Source: Patescibacteria group bacterium (GTDB lineage Bacteria > Patescibacteriota > Patescibacteriia > JAHIZJ01). From it: a stretch of DNA of 46,077 bases. The stretch's first letter is position 1, and every line of letters begins with the position of its first letter. The translations under genes and the position numbers were made by a program. Below, piece after piece: positions 5,565 to 46,077 of this stretch. The DNA lies in assembly GCA_018814765.1 (NCBI GenBank), contig JAHIZJ010000099.1, positions 1 through 46,077 of the forward strand, in the 5' to 3' direction. The notes beneath the pieces were generated by a model, which saw only the letters and a program-made list of their open reading frames with translations, made no database searches and was not told where the DNA came from.

Positions 5565-6320
5565 ATGATTACTTTCACAGCCCTACTTATTTTCATCGTT
5601 GGAATCAATATTGGAAGTTTTTTGAATGCTATTATCTGGCGCCTTCATACAAAAGAAGGCTTTTTACGTGGTCGCTCATATTGTCCTAAGTGCAAGACGT
5701 CAATCAGGGCAAGAGACCTTGTGCCGTTATTAAGCTATGCCTTATTAAGGGGTCGGTGTCGTGACTGCCAAAAACACATTGACTGGCAGTATCCTCTGGT
5801 TGAGCTTATCACCGGAGTCCTTTTTGTAATCACTTATTTAAAATTTTCCTTAAGCGAAGAATTTATTGTCTACGCTATCTATGTTTCCTTTTTAATCGTA
5901 GTGTTCGTTTTTGACCTCAGACATTATTTGATACTTGATCGGGTTATGCTTCCGGCCGGGATTGTGGCGTTGTTTGGCAGTTTAATTTTGGGCGTTGGAT
6001 TTTTCAATATACTCATTGGCATAATAATTGGCGGTGGTTTCTTCTTTTTGCAATACGTCTTATCACGAGGCAAATGGATTGGCGGAGGTGATATAAGACT
6101 GGGCCTTGTGATGGGCTTGATGCTGGGCTGGGAAAAGTTGTTGGCTGCCTTATTTGTGAGCTATCTAATCGGTTCGGTTGCCGGGATTTCATTGGTGCTA
6201 TGGAAACAAAAAAAATGGCAGAGTCGTTTGCCTTTTGGAGTATTTTTAACCACAGCCACATTTGTCACCCTAGTTTGGGGAGAAGTTTTGATTAATTGGT
6301 ATTTGGATCTAGTGGGGTAA
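5565..6320 (+). CDS. pilD: Prepilin peptidase (A24 family, PilD-like)
   Basis: Has the Cys-rich box CPKCKTSIRARDLVPLLSY...GRCRDCQKHIDWQYPLVEL, multiple TM helices and a GGGDIRLG motif, within a pilus-locus context. Confidence 0.9.
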   Translation: MITFTALLIFIVGINIGSFLNAIIWRLHTKEGFLRGRSYCPKCKTSIRARDLVPLLSYALLRGRCRDCQKHIDWQYPLVELITGVLFVITYLKFSLSEEFIVYAIYVSFLIVVFVFDLRHYLILDRVMLPAGIVALFGSLILGVGFFNILIGIIIGGGFFFLQYVLSRGKWIGGGDIRLGLVMGLMLGWEKLLAALFVSYLIGSVAGISLVLWKQKKWQSRLPFGVFLTTATFVTLVWGEVLINWYLDLVG

Positions 6321-6326
6321 ATATTT

Positions 6327-6938
6327 ATGAGAATCGACAAAGGCTATACGTTAATTGAGTTGTTAGTAACTATTTCAATATTTATTATTATTTCCACTGT
6401 TGGGTTGGTATCATTTCTACGACACCGCCAAGCGACCGATCTGGATAGTAGCGTATCTGAGCTGTCCAGCAATATCAGAAAAGTACAGGGCTATACACGT
6501 TCAGGTAGGGGTGAAGGCGGTCTTCATCCACGTGCTTATGGTGTGAGTATTGATCTTGATACCAATGACTCTTATATTTTATATGCTGACGCTGACGAAT
6601 TACCTGGTTTTGATCCGAGCACATACTGTTATGCTTGTTATGGGGAGGCAGATGTTCTCATTGATGATTATAGTCTGCTTAATAATACAACCCTGGATGC
6701 TATCAATATTACTGGACTTGCAACGATAGCGGATATTACAAAAGTTTATCTTGTTTTTATTGTTCCAACATCTGAACTAAAAATAGTATATGAGGACCCA
6801 GACGCTGGTGGTTTTGTTTCTTATGAAGTACCGGGAGAAAAAGAGGTCAGAATCACCGTTAAACATCTGAAGTCTGAAGACACAAAGACAGTAAAAGTTA
6901 CTGGTGGGGCTTTTGGTGGCGTAACAGTTGAAGAATAA
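6327..6938 (+). CDS. Minor pilin / pseudopilin-like protein
   Basis: MRIDKG|YTLIELLVTISIFIIIS is a class III signal peptide. Confidence 0.75.
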   Translation: MRIDKGYTLIELLVTISIFIIISTVGLVSFLRHRQATDLDSSVSELSSNIRKVQGYTRSGRGEGGLHPRAYGVSIDLDTNDSYILYADADELPGFDPSTYCYACYGEADVLIDDYSLLNNTTLDAINITGLATIADITKVYLVFIVPTSELKIVYEDPDAGGFVSYEVPGEKEVRITVKHLKSEDTKTVKVTGGAFGGVTVEE

Positions 6939-39379: not shown

Positions 39380-39666
39380 ACTTTTACTATACGCAAAACC
39401 AGCAGTCTATTCTAATGCTAGTGTTTTTTGCTGTGTGTTCGCCACTTTTCTTTTAGCCCCTCACCACGTAGGGTTCGGGACAGGAAAGAAAAGGCAATAA
39501 AAAACGCAGGCGAGGATGATCCCCGCATCAAGTGCGAGACATGGATTAAAAAAAGGGTAAATAAAAGAATATCCGCCAGAGGCGGATTCGCCCTTCGTGG
39601 CGGAAAGCCGTAGCTGCCAAACTTGCTCAAGATATTATTATTCCTATTTGATACTTTCCATACATA

Positions 39667-41146: not shown

Positions 41147-41413
41147 TTATTTTGCAATCGATAAATCCTCTCTAAGGATATATTTCAAAGTTGTTTTACC
41201 TTTATTAGTTTTAAAATATCGCTCACGACGAAGTGTATCAAACTTTGATCGATGGGCTTCAAAATAAATTAATTCAAATGGACGCCTTTTGGATGTCGAG
41301 ATGTTTTCACCACGATTATGTTGAGAAACGCGTCTTTCTATGTTTCTCGTATAACCAATGTAAAATTTGCCATCTTTTATACTTCTTAGAATATAAACAA
41401 AATGCCAGGTCAT
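41147..41413 (-). CDS. GIY-YIG nuclease-domain protein (small, stand-alone)
   Basis: WHFVYILRSIKDGKFYIGYTRNIERRVSQHN...YFE...REKYF-like RERYFK. Confidence 0.85.
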   Translation of the reverse strand: MTWHFVYILRSIKDGKFYIGYTRNIERRVSQHNRGENISTSKRRPFELIYFEAHRSKFDTLRRERYFKTNKGKTTLKYILREDLSIAK

Positions 41414-41447
41414 AATTTTCTGTACTCCCTGCCACTTTGATTACTTA

Positions 41448-41545
41448 GTAGTGAACCACTCGCTTTGCTTGGGTTCACTACATGAACCACTCACTTTATT
41501 TGATATGGCTGCACCATGAACTCGAACGAAGTGAGTAGTTCATGG
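41448..41545. repeat. Cluster of long palindromic hairpins sharing a TGAACCACTC core
   Basis: GTAGTGAACC (41448-41457) pairs with GGTTCACTAC (41472-41481). CATGAACCACTCACTT (41481-41496) pairs with AAGTGAGTAGTTCATG (41529-41544). CCATGAACT (41514-41522) pairs with AGTTCATGG (41537-41545). Confidence 0.6.
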
Positions 41546-41619
41546 TGGGAGCAGGAGGATTCGAACCTCCGACCGTCTGCTTAAAAGGCAGCTGCTCTAC
41601 CTAACTGAGCTATACTCCC
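41543..41619 (-). tRNA. tRNA-Lys (anticodon UUU), CCA encoded
   Basis: Hand-folded on the minus strand: GGGAGTA|TA|GCTC-AGTTAGGTA-GAGC|A|GCTGC-CTTTTAA-GCAGA|CGGTC|GGAGG-TTCGAAT-CCTCC|TGCTCCC|A|CCA. Confidence 0.9.
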
Positions 41620-41679
41620 ATGTTGTTACGTTGTGTACTTATTTAGTAAAGAGGGTTAAGTAAACCTTTTTAACTGAGC

Positions 41680-41759
41680 CCCGACGAGATCGCTCCGCGA
41701 TCTGTCGGGATCCCGATTGGTCTCGAGCGAAGTCGAGAGGCCACTTCGGGGCATCGGGA
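41680..41759. repeat. GC-rich double hairpin (REP-like)
   Basis: Hairpin 1: 41680-41692 pairs with 41698-41709 (12 bp, one bulge). Hairpin 2: TCCCGAT (41711-41717) pairs with ATCGGGA (41753-41759) and encloses CTCGA-GCGAAG-TCGAG. It shares the 12-mer GAGCGAAGTCGA with 42834-42845. Confidence 0.5.
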
Positions 41760-41816
41760 CTATACTCCTGACATAACTTTAACAATATTAACAGGCTTTT
41801 ATGGTTTTAGCAAGGC

Positions 41817-41845
41817 TTGACATATTTCAATAAACATGATATTCT
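41817..41845 (+). promoter_or_regulatory. Sigma70-like promoter upstream of the DGR target gene
   Basis: TTGACA (41817-41822), 17-nt spacer ending in TGA (extended -10-like), TATTCT (41840-41845). Confidence 0.4.
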
Positions 41846-41883
41846 ACCATGTCTGTACTTTACATGGATATATTTACTTGCAT

Positions 41884-41966
41884 TGTGGCCATAGCTAAAA
41901 GTAACTGGAAACCACCCTGAGCATTAGCGAAGGGCCTTTCGGTAATTTCTAGCTATGGCTACCACA
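41884..41966 (+). promoter_or_regulatory. Long stem-loop in the 5' leader of the DGR target gene
   Basis: TGTGGCCATAGCT (41884-41896) pairs with AGCTATGGCTACCACA (41951-41966): 13 bp with a 3-nt bulge. The 54-nt interior contains a CGAAG-GGCC-TTTCG hairpin. It ends 50 nt before the ATG. Confidence 0.45.
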
Positions 41967-42015
41967 GACGGTGATAGCCCGATAGCGATACTCCAAACTA
42001 GAGGAGGATGACGCC

Positions 42016-42678
42016 ATGTCGAAAGATGTGTCCCCATCCGAAGTAACCATCACGAAAGGCCAGTGTTGCAAGCTCATGGATGTGGGCGCGGACGCGCTGG
42101 TCAAGAGCGGCCTGCCCAGCAAGGAGACCCAGGACGTGATCGAAGAGGAGGGCGCGGAAATTGCCAAAGTCCTGGTCGCGGATGTCCGCCGCAGAGTTGA
42201 GGCACGCCTGCGTGCCATCGAACCCCACGTTCTGGAACGTCTGCCTTTCGACCCCGAATCCTTCTCGGGCAAGGGGTGGGAGGTTGACGAGCGTGTCGGC
42301 AACCGCACCGGAGGAAACCTCGACGCGGGACAGATTGTCCGCATGGACTACCTGCGTGAGGGCGAGACCTACATCACCGGAGATGAACGTCTCCATCGTA
42401 TCAAGGAAGCACCCGGAGACATCCAGCTCGACGCCGAGGACTTCCTTGCCTTGTGGCAGGAGCAGGGCCACGCCACCCTCCGGTGGCTGTACGACACTAA
42501 GGGTATCACCTGGCTGTCGTTTTGGGGTACGGTTCTCCGCGACTCAGGCAGCCGCGGCGTCCTCTGCCTCTCTCGCGATGACGGCGGTTCCTGGGACTGG
42601 GACTACCGCTGGCTCGGCAATGACTGGGTCTACTACTACCCGGCGGGTGTCCTCGCAAGTAACCCCCGCACCGAATAG
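42016..42678 (+). CDS. DGR target (variable) protein, 220 aa, no signal peptide, GC-rich
   Basis: GAGGAGGA RBS 7 nt upstream of the ATG. The C-terminus GVLCLSRDDGGSWDWDYRWLGNDWVYYYPAGVLASNPRTE carries the variable repeat. Chosen over the overlapping GC-artefact ORFs. Confidence 0.75.
   Translation: MSKDVSPSEVTITKGQCCKLMDVGADALVKSGLPSKETQDVIEEEGAEIAKVLVADVRRRVEARLRAIEPHVLERLPFDPESFSGKGWEVDERVGNRTGGNLDAGQIVRMDYLREGETYITGDERLHRIKEAPGDIQLDAEDFLALWQEQGHATLRWLYDTKGITWLSFWGTVLRDSGSRGVLCLSRDDGGSWDWDYRWLGNDWVYYYPAGVLASNPRTE
42592..42658 (+). repeat. DGR variable repeat (VR)
   Basis: 67 nt, in frame (codons 193-215). 58 of 67 positions are identical to 43176-43242, and all 9 differences lie opposite adenines of the other copy. 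Confidence 0.8.
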
Positions 42679-42686
42679 GTGCGGGG
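42664..42686 (+). promoter_or_regulatory. GC-rich hairpin immediately 3' of the VR (candidate DGR target-recognition hairpin)
   Basis: CCCCGCACC (42664-42672) pairs with GGTGCGGGG (42678-42686), loop GAATA. It spans the TAG stop codon. No T-run follows. It is absent next to the TR. Confidence 0.5.
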
Positions 42687-42866
42687 CAGGTAGTTCTTGG
42701 AACTTGACCTCCTAGACCTCTTTGGTCTTTGGATTCAGTTCTTAGAGCTTTGTCCGCTCGGCCCGCGCTGGTTTCTACACTGGCGCGGGTCATTTCTTTT
42801 TGACGCGAAGCGTCATGTCGAGCGACCTGTGGTGAGCGAAGTCGAACCAAGTCGAGACATCTCATT

Positions 42867-42895
42867 TTGCTTTTGGTGTTTGTTTTGGATATACT
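42867..42895 (+). promoter_or_regulatory. Sigma70-like promoter upstream of the template repeat
   Basis: TTGCTT (42867-42872), 17-nt spacer, TATACT (42890-42895). Confidence 0.4.
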
Positions 42896-43175
42896 AACTT
42901 TGGTACTAGGTTAATCAGTCAGCGACTATTGTTGCTGACGACCGAATCCAGTGACCATATTACTCAGAGTACCGCAGGCCACGGTTTGCGGCAGCGTGGA
43001 ATACGGCGCTCAAAAAACGATGTTACTTGGTATAGCGCGTTAAGGCATTTAATATGCCGGATACGATACAGCCCCAAGAGTACTCAAAGGGCAGTGGCAT
43101 GGACGGCACGCTGTACAGAACCGCAACGCTGATGGCAATATCAACGTCCGTTACCTCAACTGGGATGATGACAGG

Positions 43176-43242
43176 TGGAACTGGAACTACAACTGGCTCG
43201 ACAATGACTGGAACTACAACAACCCGGCGGGTGTCCTCGCAA
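43176..43242 (+). repeat. DGR template repeat (TR) core; the TR-like Asn-codon-rich stretch may extend 5' to about 43074
   Basis: Noncoding: in-frame stops at 43041 and 43050, and no ATG in that frame. It is AAC/AAT-rich (reads WNWNYNWLDNDWNYNNPAGVLA). All 47 non-A positions are identical to the VR. Confidence 0.8.
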
Positions 43243-43254
43243 ATTACCTCGTTT

Positions 43255-43283
43255 CTCTCCCTTGTTTGGGAGAGTTTTGTTTT
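43255..43283 (+). terminator. Terminator-like hairpin directly after the TR
   Basis: CTCTCCC (43255-43261) pairs with GGGAGAG (43268-43274), followed by TTTTGTTTT. Confidence 0.45.
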
Positions 43284-43301
43284 GTAAGTTGGCCGTTCTA
43301 G

Positions 43302-43550
43302 CCTCCTACTAATAAGGTATCTATTAAAACCGTGGCTTCGGGAGTGGATTTTCTGGGCTGGGTGCATTTTCCTAACCATCGGGTATTGAGGACTGTTGCA
43401 AAACGTAGGATGTTAAAGAATCTTGATATCAAACAAGGTGAGAACGCAACAGCACAGTCGTATATTGGTCTGTTACAGCACGGGAATACTAAGAAGCTAT
43501 CCCAACGAGTATCTGATGTGTCAGGAAATAGCGAGCAGTACAAAAATTGA
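43302..43550 (+). pseudogene. DGR-type reverse transcriptase, C-terminal fragment only (about 82 codons)
   Basis: PPTNKVSIKTVASGVDFLGWVHFPNHRVLRTVAKRRMLKNL...SYIGLLQHGNTKKL parallels the end of the Bordetella phage Brt (..SRGINFLGYRIWPTHKLLRKSSVKRAKRKV...SWSGHAQWADTHNL, recalled from memory). There is an in-frame TAG at 43299, no ATG, and no palm domain or YxDD motif anywhere upstream. Confidence 0.6.
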
Positions 43551-43585
43551 AAAAAAACTCATATATTGGTATAGTAATAAACAGT

Positions 43586-46077
43586 ATGTCTATACAAAAA
43601 AGCTACAATCTGACACAAATAAAAGTTTTTGAGTTATTAAAAACTCGTAAGTTCGGCTTGACTGGTAAGGAAGTCACTGCGCGTCAAAAGAAGTATGGCC
43701 AGAATTCTTTACCAGAGGGCCATCGCGCCTCCCGACTAATATTGTTATTAAACCAGTTCAAAAGCTCACTCGTCTATATACTATTAGGAGCGGCTGGGAT
43801 AAGTCTACTTTTAGAATCTTTTGTGGACATGTATGTTATTTTGTCTGCTGTTATTGTTAATGTAATAGTAGGATATGTCCAAGAGAGCCGAGCCATGAAA
43901 GCGATGGAGAAATTGAGAAGAATAGTCCAATTTCAAGCACTTGTGGTGCGCAATGGAGAAGAAAAAAACATTAATGTAAAAGACCTGGTTCCGGGTGATA
44001 TAGTTGTATTGGAGCCTGGCTATAAAATACCGGCTGATATTCGGTTTTTTGATACGGTCAATCTTAGGATTAACGAAGCACGATTGACCGGTGAATCACA
44101 CCCCGTTACAAAAACCACAAAACCATTAACCGGAGACTTGGTTTTAGCCGACAGAACAAATATGGGATTTATGGGTACTGTAGTAGTGGGTGGATCTGGC
44201 AGGGGTGTGGTTTGTCAGACAGGCACAGAAACAGAGCTGGGTCAGATAGCTCAGATGATTAAAGACACTAAAGAAGAGAAGACGCCCTTGCAAGAAAGGC
44301 TAAGCTCCCTCAGTAAACTTCTCGGGGGTATGATTTTATTGATCTGTTTATTCATTTTTGCTTTCGGATATTTTGCTGGTCATGGATTTCTAGAAATGTT
44401 TACTACTTCCGTAGCCATCGCAGTGGCGGCTATTCCAGAGGGCTTAGCTGTGGCTGTGACGGTAATTCTTGCGATTGGTATGCAGAGGATACTCAAACAC
44501 AAGGCCTTGGTGCGAAAACTAGTAGCGGCTGAAACTCTTGGTTCGACAACGGTTATCTGTACAGATAAAACCGGCACTCTAACAGAAGGTGAAATGAAAG
44601 TAGTAAGAGTTATCACCAATAATCAAGACTTTGAAACGCACGAAGACAAATTCAGAACCCATTTAAAAGAAACTGGTGCAAGCTTTATTAAAGCTCTTGA
44701 GATCGGCGTCTTATGCAATGATGCACACATTGAAAATGAGTATAGTGATATAAAAGACTGGGTGATCTTTGGTAATCCGACTGAGAAAGCTCTTATATTG
44801 GCGGGCAGTCAGGTTGGCTTGAACCGTAGTAATTTAGAGAAAGTTACCCCGCGCATTGATACTGTTCCCTTTACCTCTGAACGAAAGTTCATGATGACAC
44901 TACACCATGATAAAAAAGACAATAAGGTTATTTATCTGAAAGGTGCTCCTGAAAAAGTACTTGAAATGTCAGACTCGATAGATGTTGATGGAAAAATTGA
45001 AAAGCTTACCCCAGCAAAATTAGAAAAACTGAAAAAGCGCTATGAGTTGCTTAGCAATAAGGGCTTAAGAATTATTGCCTTAGCTTATCGATCTAGAGCA
45101 ATAGATTTTACCAAGATGATAGAGAGCCCCGGTTTATATGAACAATTTGTTTTTGTTGGATTTATGGGCATCAAAGACCCCCTAAGAAAAGAGACCAAAG
45201 AAACAATTGACCTATGTAAAAAGTCTGGTATAAAAATTGTGATGATAACGGGTGATCATAAATTAACAGCCCAAGCTATTGCAAATGAATTAGGCTTACC
45301 GGCTAAAGCAGAAAACGTACTCGAAGGGGCTGAAATGTCAAAAATGAATAACACGCAACTACAAGAACGCGTTAAGAAAATATCTGTCTATGCCCGAGTA
45401 ACCCCAAAGGATAAATTGCGCATAGTTGATGCTTGGCAGGCCATAGGAGAGGTGGTGGCTATGACCGGTGATGGGGTTAATGACGCCCCAGCTTTACGTG
45501 CCGCCGATATCGGTGTAGCAGTTGGATCTGGTACCGATATAGCCAAAGAAACAGCCAGCTTAATAATACTGGATGACAATTTTAAAACCATTGTTGAGGC
45601 TGTGCGTCAAGGGAGAGTAGTCTTTGACAATATCCGTAAGGTGGTGTTGTATTTACTTTCTGATAGCTTTTCTGAAGTAATAATGATTTCAGTATCTTTA
45701 CTTTTAGGTTTCCCACTTCCTTTGTTGGCTGCACAAATTCTTTGGATAAATTTGGTGACAGATGGATTTCCAGATATTGCCCTTACTCTTGAGCCACCCG
45801 AAAAAGCAGTTATGGAAGAGCCACCTATTCGTCGTGATGAACCTATTGTTAATAACGAAATGAAAATATTGATAGGTGTAATAAGCTTGGTCACTGGCTT
45901 GGTCACTCTGGGATTGTTCTATTTTTTTTACAAAGCTACTGACGATCTTGATTTAGCTCGAACCATCGCTTTCGTTTCAGTTGGTATCGACTCTCTGCTT
46001 TATGTCTTTAGCTGTAGATCGCTTCGTACATCTATCTTTAAAAAGAATCCATTCTCCAATATTTATTTAATTATTGC
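43586..46077 (+). CDS. P-type cation-transporting ATPase (type II-like), 3' end outside window
   Basis: Hand translation from ATG 43586 gives MSIQKSYNLTQIKVFELLKT...TGESHPV...ICTDKTGTLT (Asp codon at 44564, in frame)...VAMTGDGVNDAPALRAADIGVAVG. The frame is open to the window end, so the gene is absent from the ORF track. Confidence 0.9.
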   Translation, partial: MSIQKSYNLTQIKVFELLKTRKFGLTGKEVTARQKKYGQNSLPEGHRASRLILLLNQFKSSLVYILLGAAGISLLLESFVDMYVILSAVIVNVIVGYVQESRAMKAMEKLRRIVQFQALVVRNGEEKNINVKDLVPGDIVVLEPGYKIPADIRFFDTVNLRINEARLTGESHPVTKTTKPLTGDLVLADRTNMGFMGTVVVGGSGRGVVCQTGTETELGQIAQMIKDTKEEKTPLQERLSSLSKLLGGMILLICLFIFAFGYFAGHGFLEMFTTSVAIAVAAIPEGLAVAVTVILAIGMQRILKHKALVRKLVAAETLGSTTVICTDKTGTLTEGEMKVVRVITNNQDFETHEDKFRTHLKETGASFIKALEIGVLCNDAHIENEYSDIKDWVIFGNPTEKALILAGSQVGLNRSNLEKVTPRIDTVPFTSERKFMMTLHHDKKDNKVIYLKGAPEKVLEMSDSIDVDGKIEKLTPAKLEKLKKRYELLSNKGLRIIALAYRSRAIDFTKMIESPGLYEQFVFVGFMGIKDPLRKETKETIDLCKKSGIKIVMITGDHKLTAQAIANELGLPAKAENVLEGAEMSKMNNTQLQERVKKISVYARVTPKDKLRIVDAWQAIGEVVAMTGDGVNDAPALRAADIGVAVGSGTDIAKETASLIILDDNFKTIVEAVRQGRVVFDNIRKVVLYLLSDSFSEVIMISVSLLLGFPLPLLAAQILWINLVTDGFPDIALTLEPPEKAVMEEPPIRRDEPIVNNEMKILIGVISLVTGLVTLGLFYFFYKATDDLDLARTIAFVSVGIDSLLYVFSCRSLRTSIFKKNPFSNIYLII

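Follow-up and report, generated by a model that had tools for sequence, protein, structure and literature searches.

What makes a single gene stand out as a GC island in a small, AT-rich genome? The question is raised by positions 41990-42870 of contig JAHIZJ010000099.1 (GenBank assembly GCA_018814765.1), a 46,077-nucleotide (nt) stretch from a Patescibacteria group bacterium that was analyzed at its full length and is called the window here. The island is built around the target (variable-protein) gene of a diversity-generating retroelement (DGR). The original prediction had taken this gene to be foreign relative to its own retroelement and to be a recent acquisition or replacement. Here, we propose that a relic DGR cassette was inserted whole beside a tRNA-Lys gene, that the island is the target gene of this cassette, and that its GC content is typical of its class of genes; we consider this reading probable. 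The metagenome-assembled genome (MAG) to which the window belongs, G000, consists of 1,381,188 bases in 139 contigs (40.1% GC, estimated completeness 98.7%). C-numbers denote contigs of G000, L-numbers comparison loci, and the other G-numbers other Patescibacteria genomes.

The GC content of 41990-42870 is 0.599, that of the rest of the window is 0.399, and that of the whole genome is 0.401. The top-scoring segment above 0.5 GC in the whole window spans 41957-42838 (0.604), nearly the predicted span. The island is therefore present as predicted, although its GC had been estimated at roughly 65%, and the host GC, put at about 37%, is 0.40. Sliding 200-nt windows across 42000-42699 form a plateau of 0.60-0.64, with 0.405 on the left side (41800-41999) and 0.49 on the right (42700-42899). 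With 0.623, the GC-richest 700-nt window of the island heads the 11362 windows on contigs of at least 5 kb (mean 0.398, standard deviation 0.046). Among the 962 open reading frames (ORFs) of at least 120 amino acids (aa) on the same set of contigs, ORF 42016-42678 (GC 0.621; 0.66, 0.45, and 0.75 at codon positions 1, 2, and 3) ranks first both for GC at third positions (GC3, 0.75; genome mean 0.359, standard deviation 0.073) and for C at four-fold sites (C4, 0.53). The strong GC3 bias that had been noticed by eye is thus real, and the gene is compositionally foreign to this genome, as had been supposed: C4 is 0.10 in tuf, where T at four-fold sites (T4) is 0.51, and the ribosomal-protein genes resemble tuf. 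The spurious long ORFs reported on both strands were also located, at 41949-42344(-), 41998-42471(-), 42161-42715(+), and 42506-42865(-). Outside the target, GC is 0.54 in the zone of the template repeat (TR), 0.49 in the spacer between the variable region (VR) and TR, 0.44 in the leader, and 0.42 in the stub of the reverse transcriptase (RT); the values for TR zone, leader, and stub are close to the earlier by-eye estimates. Other genes of similar GC, which were named as an argument against an island, do occur: GC3 is at least 0.55 in about 25 of the 962 ORFs, and a second island of 0.62 lies on C56 (C56:10147), yet the target ranks first. The target-gene island is the extreme of a small GC-rich tail and is not unique in the genome. 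Elsewhere, a lone 417-aa ORF at C16:30846-32096(-), with the look of an M20-type amidohydrolase by eye, has 0.58 GC in a 0.40 contig, and seven contigs of about 2 kb (C1, C6, C13, C34, C61, C75, and C90) with peak 600-nt GC of 0.58-0.67 are probably binning contaminants.

The cassette and its borders comprise the following parts.

41543-41619, minus strand: tRNA-Lys(UUU), left border of the insertion (ARAGORN; Rfam, 71 bits).
41620-43545, plus strand: inserted relic DGR cassette of 1.93 kb (leader, target, spacer, TR, Avd remnant, RT stub).
41937-42015, plus strand: conserved 5' leader, with the 3' arm of hairpin 41884-41966 and a ribosome-binding site (blastn).
42016-42678, plus strand: gene for the 220-aa target (variable) protein, forming the body of the GC island (homologues, GC, AlphaFold2 model).
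42535-42591, plus strand: older 5' part of VR, non-cognate with the present TR (about 60% identity to TR, 3-nt indel).
42592-42664, plus strand: part of VR templated by the present TR (match to 43176-43248).
42664-42686, plus strand: GC-rich hairpin across the stop codon, 9-bp stem and 5-nt loop (folding).
42879-43119, plus strand: conserved pre-TR region (blastn with L004, L005, L011, L012, L014, L022, and L057).
43120-43250, plus strand: TR (full-length alignment with the 125-135-nt TRs of L004, L012, L057, and L005).
43253-43284, plus strand: post-TR hairpin followed by a T run, terminator-like and conserved in five loci.
43259-43306, minus strand: Avd remnant of the final 16 codons, which include an in-frame stop (translation).
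43308-43550, plus strand: RT stub, about residues 258-333 of a 333-aa DGR RT (open frame from 43332).
43547-46075, plus strand: P-type ATPase, host gene and right border (orthologues of 71-73% in G001, G003, G005, and G006).

The original prediction had placed a DGR target gene in the island, and the adenine differences between VR and TR, the hairpin, and the conserved cassette regions agree with this. Positions 42592-42664 match 43176-43248, the part of TR that is cognate with VR, over 73 nt with 85% identity, and 10 of the 11 differences fall at TR adenines. The hairpin after VR has a folding energy of -14.4 kcal/mol (z -4.05), and 0 of 200 shuffled sequences folded equally well. In phage BPP-1, a GC-rich hairpin after VR is required for homing (PMC3240598). 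L004 is a complete relative with target, TR, antisense Avd (Pfam bAvd), and a 333-aa RT (RVT_1), and L057 has the same complete layout; in L011 and L012, Avd is present and then the contigs end. The window shares the pre-TR, TR, and post-TR regions with these four loci up to 43306. From there, only remnants are left. The Avd remnant reads GG*NGQLTKQNSPKQG, which can be compared with the C terminus of L011 Avd, GGWNGQLIKQNSP..., and no other Avd match was found in G000 at E ≤ 1e-2. The RT stub is 51% identical to residues 242-325 of the L004 RT (tblastn), lacks the catalytic YADD (residue 224 in L004) and all upstream residues, and has no Pfam match, including RVT_1. In L004 coordinates, the deletion amounts to 1114 bp. 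No L004-type RT was detected in G000 at E ≤ 1e-25, and such an RT occurs in 100 of the 401 Patescibacteria genomes searched. The cassette is a relic DGR with avd and RT cut to stubs. It has lost the ability to diversify by itself, and VR is probably frozen. Contigs from 2016 and 2024 contain no alternative letter at 42592-42664, though such contigs lose rare variants and the runs may include the source of the MAG.

Further RT fragments and another relic were seen. At C74:4298-4661, a second DGR-type RT fragment runs off the end of the contig; it corresponds to about residues 219-279 of the L004 RT plus a tail in a shifted frame, is apparently frameshifted, and adjoins tRNA-like GC-rich sequence. 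C114:23780-24357 matches Pfam RVT_1 in two pieces with one TAG inside, and had no match to the L004 DGR RT at E ≤ 1e-2. L005:10001-11160 is another relic of the family, with a target (gene GC 0.454) and a TR that differs from VR at 12 adenine and 12 non-adenine positions; no RT or Avd was found within the flanks examined, about 3 kb downstream of the target.

Homology to same-family genomes stops at 41612/41613 and restarts at 43545, the stop codon of RT; therefore, the whole cassette, not the target alone, is the inserted unit. In G001, G003, and G006, between 40 and about 360 bp separate the tRNA-Lys(UUU) from the ATPase start; in G005, the gap is 1.7 kb and contains unrelated ORFs and no DGR part. 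DGR parts are absent from the syntenic tRNA-Lys/ATPase site in all four same-family genomes (0/4), and a target homologue was found in none of six (0/6). The target family is patchy, with members in 9 of the 401 genomes of the phylum at E ≤ 1e-20, G000 included. No integrase ORF was found in 41620-43545, and there are no att-like flanking direct repeats, only weak ones of 20-27 nt. We infer that the cassette came by horizontal transfer. The predicted acquisition is supported in so far as the gene sits in a lineage-specific insertion, whereas the replacement proposed along with it does not follow from the GC contrast.

The order of events that we infer is as follows. A cassette arranged as leader, target, spacer, TR, antisense avd, and RT was inserted between tRNA-Lys and the P-type ATPase gene. 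The element was active at least once, here or in a donor, when cDNA of the present TR overwrote the last 73 nt of VR and left adenine-specific changes there. A later deletion of about 1.1 kb took nearly all of avd and RT residues 1 to approximately 257.

A chimeric assembly is unlikely, and an assembly chimera or binning artefact that brought in a GC-rich piece from another organism deserves next to no credence. The MAG does come in 139 contigs, and several of its 2-kb high-GC contigs resemble contaminants, but a search of public sequencing runs found nearly all of the stretch in one biofilm run of 2016 and two groundwater runs of 2024 (X1-X3; two studies). Logan contigs of 1259 nt (X1, 41598-42856), 1284 nt (X3, 41572-42855), and 1031 nt (X2, 41818-42848) cross both GC boundaries with 0 differences, and, with a further 276 nt from X2, the contigs of the three runs span tRNA-Lys, leader, target, and spacer. 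This addresses, at the level of contigs, the concern of the original prediction about coverage at the island edges. The deletion junction is bridged by contigs of 171-182 nt (43175/43186-43356), and the chain continues through TR into the ATPase gene at comparable depth; in the three runs, contig depth is 36, 33, and 12.7 in the island and 43-49, 42-48, and 12-16 alongside. The exact target protein is present on three contigs of a protein collection. Moreover, the cassette layout agrees with that of relatives on either side of the GC step.

The same contigs point to strain variation. Two alleles at 41300-41539 differ at 6-7 positions per 108-148 nt and have depths of about 43 and 16 in X1 and X2, which shows co-occurring strains; the island depth fits the major upstream allele and is slightly below the sum of both. 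In a run of low depth from a third study (X4), the leader (41572-41858) and the ATPase gene are covered and the island is not. A co-occurring strain without the cassette is possible.

The contrast between a GC-rich target and its host-like retroelement was compared with that in other DGRs. We surveyed 40 RT loci from other Patescibacteria genomes, of which 34 had an adenine-specific VR/TR pair and six without one were dropped. With L004 and L057, this gave 36 DGRs, whose targets fall into five or six unrelated families at least, and VR was excluded from the target body. GC of the target body is higher than that of RT in all 36 and higher than that of host ORFs in 32, and RT is below the host in 33. 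The mean offset from the host is +0.082 for the target and -0.051 for RT, and at four-fold sites +0.144 and -0.009, respectively. RT GC correlates with host GC over the 36 DGRs (r = 0.82, slope 0.68). In the complete relatives L004 and L057, target plus TR have 0.53-0.56 GC, Avd 0.39-0.42, RT 0.375-0.395, and the host 0.40-0.43. Within the target family, the 25 loci with at least 1 kb of flank have gene GC of 0.445-0.621 and flank GC of 0.32-0.595 (r = 0.09), and the excess of gene over flank is also large in L055 (+0.226), L054 (+0.203), and L012 (+0.196). The family tree leaves the branching inside a 17-row clade open, and the host GC values (32-60%) are scattered over it. We found no report in searchable literature text of DGR targets that are systematically GC-richer than RT and host. 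A GC-rich target is a property of DGR targets in this group, not the mark of a separate origin. Because the contrast with RT is usual in the surveyed DGRs, it is no evidence of a target swap. The claim that the target is foreign to its own retroelement fails on this ground, the same contrast being found in 36/36, and also because the whole cassette was inserted.

VR itself keeps a record of some reshuffling. Its 5' 58 nt have about 13 mismatches at non-adenine positions of TR (hand count), and its 3' 73 nt have one, whereas the VR/TR pairs of intact relatives, 125-130 nt long, differ nearly only at adenines. The 5' part has the GGTTCC insertion typical of L004/L012-type repeats, and TR is of the short form. 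The 5' half of TR (VRYLNW type) resembles that of the L011 TR, which is cognate to the second target of L011. L011:160-2381 is a two-target DGR. Its TR and the VR of its second target (937-1500) are cognates that differ at adenines only, and the VR of the first, window-like target is non-cognate. Where L011 carries the second target, the window has about 260 nt. The sharp switch in mismatches between the two parts of VR, as read from the alignment, favours partial homing, in which the cDNA came from a non-cognate TR, over even decay. Target and TR would accordingly have different histories, for which the mosaic VR gives partial, independent support, but it does not establish the target as the newcomer.

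That a foreign, GC-rich target recently replaced or joined the target of a resident, host-like retroelement is unlikely in our view. Such a swap would account for the mosaic VR, only the 3' 73 nt of which match TR at non-adenine positions, for the likeness of the 5' half of TR to an L011 TR paired with a different target, and for the window being without the L011-type second target. The mosaic fits equally well, however, with loss of a second target from a cassette that had two, followed by cross-homing of TR into the remaining VR. Furthermore, the retroelement is not resident, since the insertion comprises the entire cassette with its RT stub; the same relatives, for example L011, give the best matches to the leader and to the TR region; and the GC contrast is normal in DGRs with full-length RT (36/36). 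Of the predicted target replacement, some reshuffling of target and TR thus survives through the mosaic VR, and the GC argument does not. With a whole-cassette insertion of class-typical composition as the preferred reading, what raises the GC of the targets has still to be considered. Translational adaptation to the host was rejected as a candidate, because tuf and the ribosomal-protein genes favour T- or A-ending codons. It is very improbable that the excess is a by-product of DGR adenine mutagenesis acting over the whole gene and depleting A on the coding strand. Four-fold A is indeed low in targets (0.03-0.21; 0.09 in the window's target, 0.30 in the host), but two-fold codons shift equally toward G (0.62 versus 0.38 in the host) and C (0.62 versus 0.35), so T is avoided as much as A. 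Most of the adenine changes counted over 18 VR/TR pairs are to G (190 G, 67 T, and 56 C), whereas the enriched silent base is C. GC steps up where the target ORF begins, without a gradient toward VR, and a terminator-like site stands between target and TR. In addition, five of the eight other family-bearing genomes of the phylum (G081, G200, G216, G247, and G288) are not RT-positive in the search for L004-type RTs, and the near-complete genome G081 (L054), in which no RT was detected, keeps an excess of 20 points.

It is rather doubtful that recent transfer from a GC-rich donor, with the donor composition kept and now ameliorating, is the whole explanation without any effect of gene class. In its favour, the cassette is an insertion and the family is patchy, and the old-looking relic L005, with no RT and with 12 non-adenine TR mismatches, has the lower gene GC of 0.454. 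A GC deviation of at least 5%, found in about 20% of DGRs, has also been taken as a sign of transfer (Wu et al. 2018, PMC5758913). On the other hand, RT and Avd of the same cassettes are host-like at silent sites and the targets are not; because host-like RTs stand beside GC-rich targets, a uniform donor composition is excluded as the sole cause. The homologues are overwhelmingly from Patescibacteria or unbinned contigs, the nearest being only 80% identical, and the host GC values of 32-60% are scattered over the family tree. It is possible, and we put it forward tentatively, that the targets of Patescibacteria DGRs are held above their hosts, their own RT, and Avd in silent-site GC by a force on the whole ORF. 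That force might be selection, acting on the coding sequence or on the mRNA, or GC-biased repair linked to repeated recombination at targets, though we hold either weakly. The options that remain are such a force and a GC-richer pool from which targets are renewed faster than RTs, and they are not separable here.

Several points weigh against the reading that we prefer. It comes without a cause for the GC offset. The 36 DGRs are related RT lineages, and their counts overstate independence; the gene calls of the survey were simple longest ORFs. Targets partly follow host GC (r = 0.61, slope 0.58), and 4 of the 36 are not above it. A host-independent GC set point, at which the 25 family loci and the first 17 DGRs had hinted, was weakened by the same correlation over all 36 and was abandoned. 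The window's target is an extreme case, with +22 points overall and a four-fold-site GC (GC4) of 0.75 versus 0.34 in the host, to which, beyond the effect of gene class, a recent origin in a GC-rich donor may contribute. The RT on C74 could belong to a second DGR acting in trans. Runs X1-X3 may include the MAG's own source, and their contigs carry no read-pair information. Finally, the fold assignment of the target protein described below is weak (best Z 4.8).

The 220-aa target protein has 48 homologues at E ≤ 1e-3 in 90% clusters. The closest homologues are 73-80% identical; the best, at 80%, sits on a 3.3-kb contig labelled Zixiibacteriota, and nearly all the named ones are from Patescibacteria MAGs. 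The search suggested earlier for a donor lineage accordingly turned up none of matching composition: beyond the best hit at 80%, the other named ones are Patescibacteria, and the hosts of the relatives have 32-60% GC. An exhaustive search of the target family gave 687 clusters at 50% identity with a conserved core at about 70-215, and the homologue alignment shows a hypervariable stretch close to the C terminus. In the AlphaFold2 model (predicted local distance difference test score 89), a pair of long helices at the N terminus precedes an alpha/beta domain (72-213). Pfam has no family for the protein, and Foldseek against the Protein Data Bank gave no match to the model at E ≤ 1e-3. In an exhaustive structure comparison, the best Z score was 4.8 (2.4-4.8 among those listed), which is within the common range of the tool, and the matches were mostly C-type-lectin-like folds, TvpA and Mtd included. 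Judging from the model, the compact domain is probably C-type-lectin-like, with VR at the C terminus.

Four further features lie in or beside the island.

41675-41762, plus strand: GC-rich structured repeat in the leader (77% identical to C114:7643-7722; fold z -3.96).
41817-41845, plus strand: promoter-like site, TTGACA, 17 nt, TATTCT, with TG (consensus scan, 10/12 matches).
42760-42801, plus strand: terminator-like stem of 13 pairs, then a T run (consensus scan).
42819-42856, plus strand: multi-copy short repeat (depth 93-104 versus 33-36 adjacent; loose contig ends at 42819 and 42852-42856).

Loose contig ends at 41675 and 41713 show that the leader repeat has further copies in the metagenome, and it had no match in the other cassette loci. 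Three promoter-like sites were seen in the region where 2.1 are expected, and the one at 41817-41845 is backed by its position only. Leader homology with L011, L013, L018, L019, and L021 begins at 41937-41949 (blastn), and the leader hairpin 41884-41966 has a z of -3.44. The repeat at 42819-42856, which has loose contig ends in four runs, is common to many genomes of these communities. The Rfam scan of the window found two tRNAs and nothing else. Judged from the aligned upstream regions of the orthologues, the true start of the ATPase is likely the ATG near 43587, and the promoter scan gave a promoter-like site at 43547-43575.

In L039 (G001:C5, reversed 6140-6620), a GIY-YIG gene stands between tRNA-Lys and the ATPase gene and is followed by a duplicated piece of the 5' part of the tRNA, as if it had been inserted into the tRNA region. 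The window has a GIY-YIG gene (41147-41413) on the opposite side of tRNA-Lys, and in L005 the target is preceded by tRNA-like sequence and a GIY-YIG ORF. The second GC-richest island of the MAG (C56:9863-10830, 0.62) is a gene that is apparently frameshifted. Over 61 aa, its N terminus shares 56% identity with the N terminus of the L104 target, a bona fide DGR target, and it is weakly like the window's target; it has a similar GC-rich hairpin at the 3' end and an adjacent IS30-like transposase ORF, and no TR for it was found in the genome. In the window, 38 nt at 39448-39484 are 82% identical to the hairpin region after this gene and fall in an intergenic stretch of 0.46-0.49 GC that is 1.9 kb long in G001.

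With these results, an unexplained GC island becomes an annotated relic, a variable-protein gene frozen after the loss of its diversifying machinery, and the mosaic VR becomes a record of a TR acting on a non-cognate target. Atypical GC in DGR cassettes is commonly read as transfer or replacement. The survey suggests that DGRs of this phylum by default pair a GC-rich target with an AT-rich RT, so that this reading would often be wrong. If the offset reflects a real force on targets, it would be a new and testable feature of DGR biology. Target-type genes hold both of the GC-richest 700-nt windows of the MAG (contigs of at least 5 kb), the second being that on C56; if the relation holds, a single-gene GC island in a small, AT-rich genome would be a cheap marker of present, former, orphan, or remote DGR targets.

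Comparison with known systems places the cassette among DGRs and sets its peculiarities apart. Like the BPP-1 element, it has VR at the 3' end of the target, TR downstream, adenine-specific differences, and a GC-rich hairpin after VR, and its intact relatives have a bAvd-like Avd and an RVT_1 RT. GC in BPP-1 runs in the same direction (mtd body 0.657, brt 0.613, and avd 0.566), but mtd equals the phage genome (0.654) and forms no island. Unlike in BPP-1, avd is antisense in the relatives of the window, and in the window only stubs of avd and RT are left; the element belongs to a chromosome, that of a Patescibacteria MAG of about 1.4 Mb, and not to a phage; the target has 220 aa and no tail-fibre context; and the hairpin loop has 5 nt instead of the 4-nt GRNA. 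Islands adjacent to tRNA genes share with the cassette an atypical composition, a tRNA neighbour, and absence from relatives. The cassette differs from them in having no integrase or flanking direct repeat, in its size of only 1.9 kb, and in the side of the tRNA that it abuts, which is the 5' end where the 3' end is usual. Among C-type-lectin variable proteins, TvpA (2y3c; Z 3.6 over 127 residues) and Mtd (1yu0; Z 3.4) align weakly with model residues 70-219, as do FGE-like proteins and many C-type lectin domains, and VR is likewise C-terminal; the N-terminal two-helix module (14-66) of the target is not part of known variable proteins. A parallel in setting is with the DGRs of candidate-phyla-radiation bacteria, which were reportedly treated by Paul et al. 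in 2017 and Roux et al. in 2021 (PMC8144416), besides Wu et al. 2018. Abundant DGR-type RTs (100 of 401 genomes here), small targets with a C-terminal VR, and signs of transfer are common to both, and the copy in the window is distinguished as a relic with a mosaic VR.

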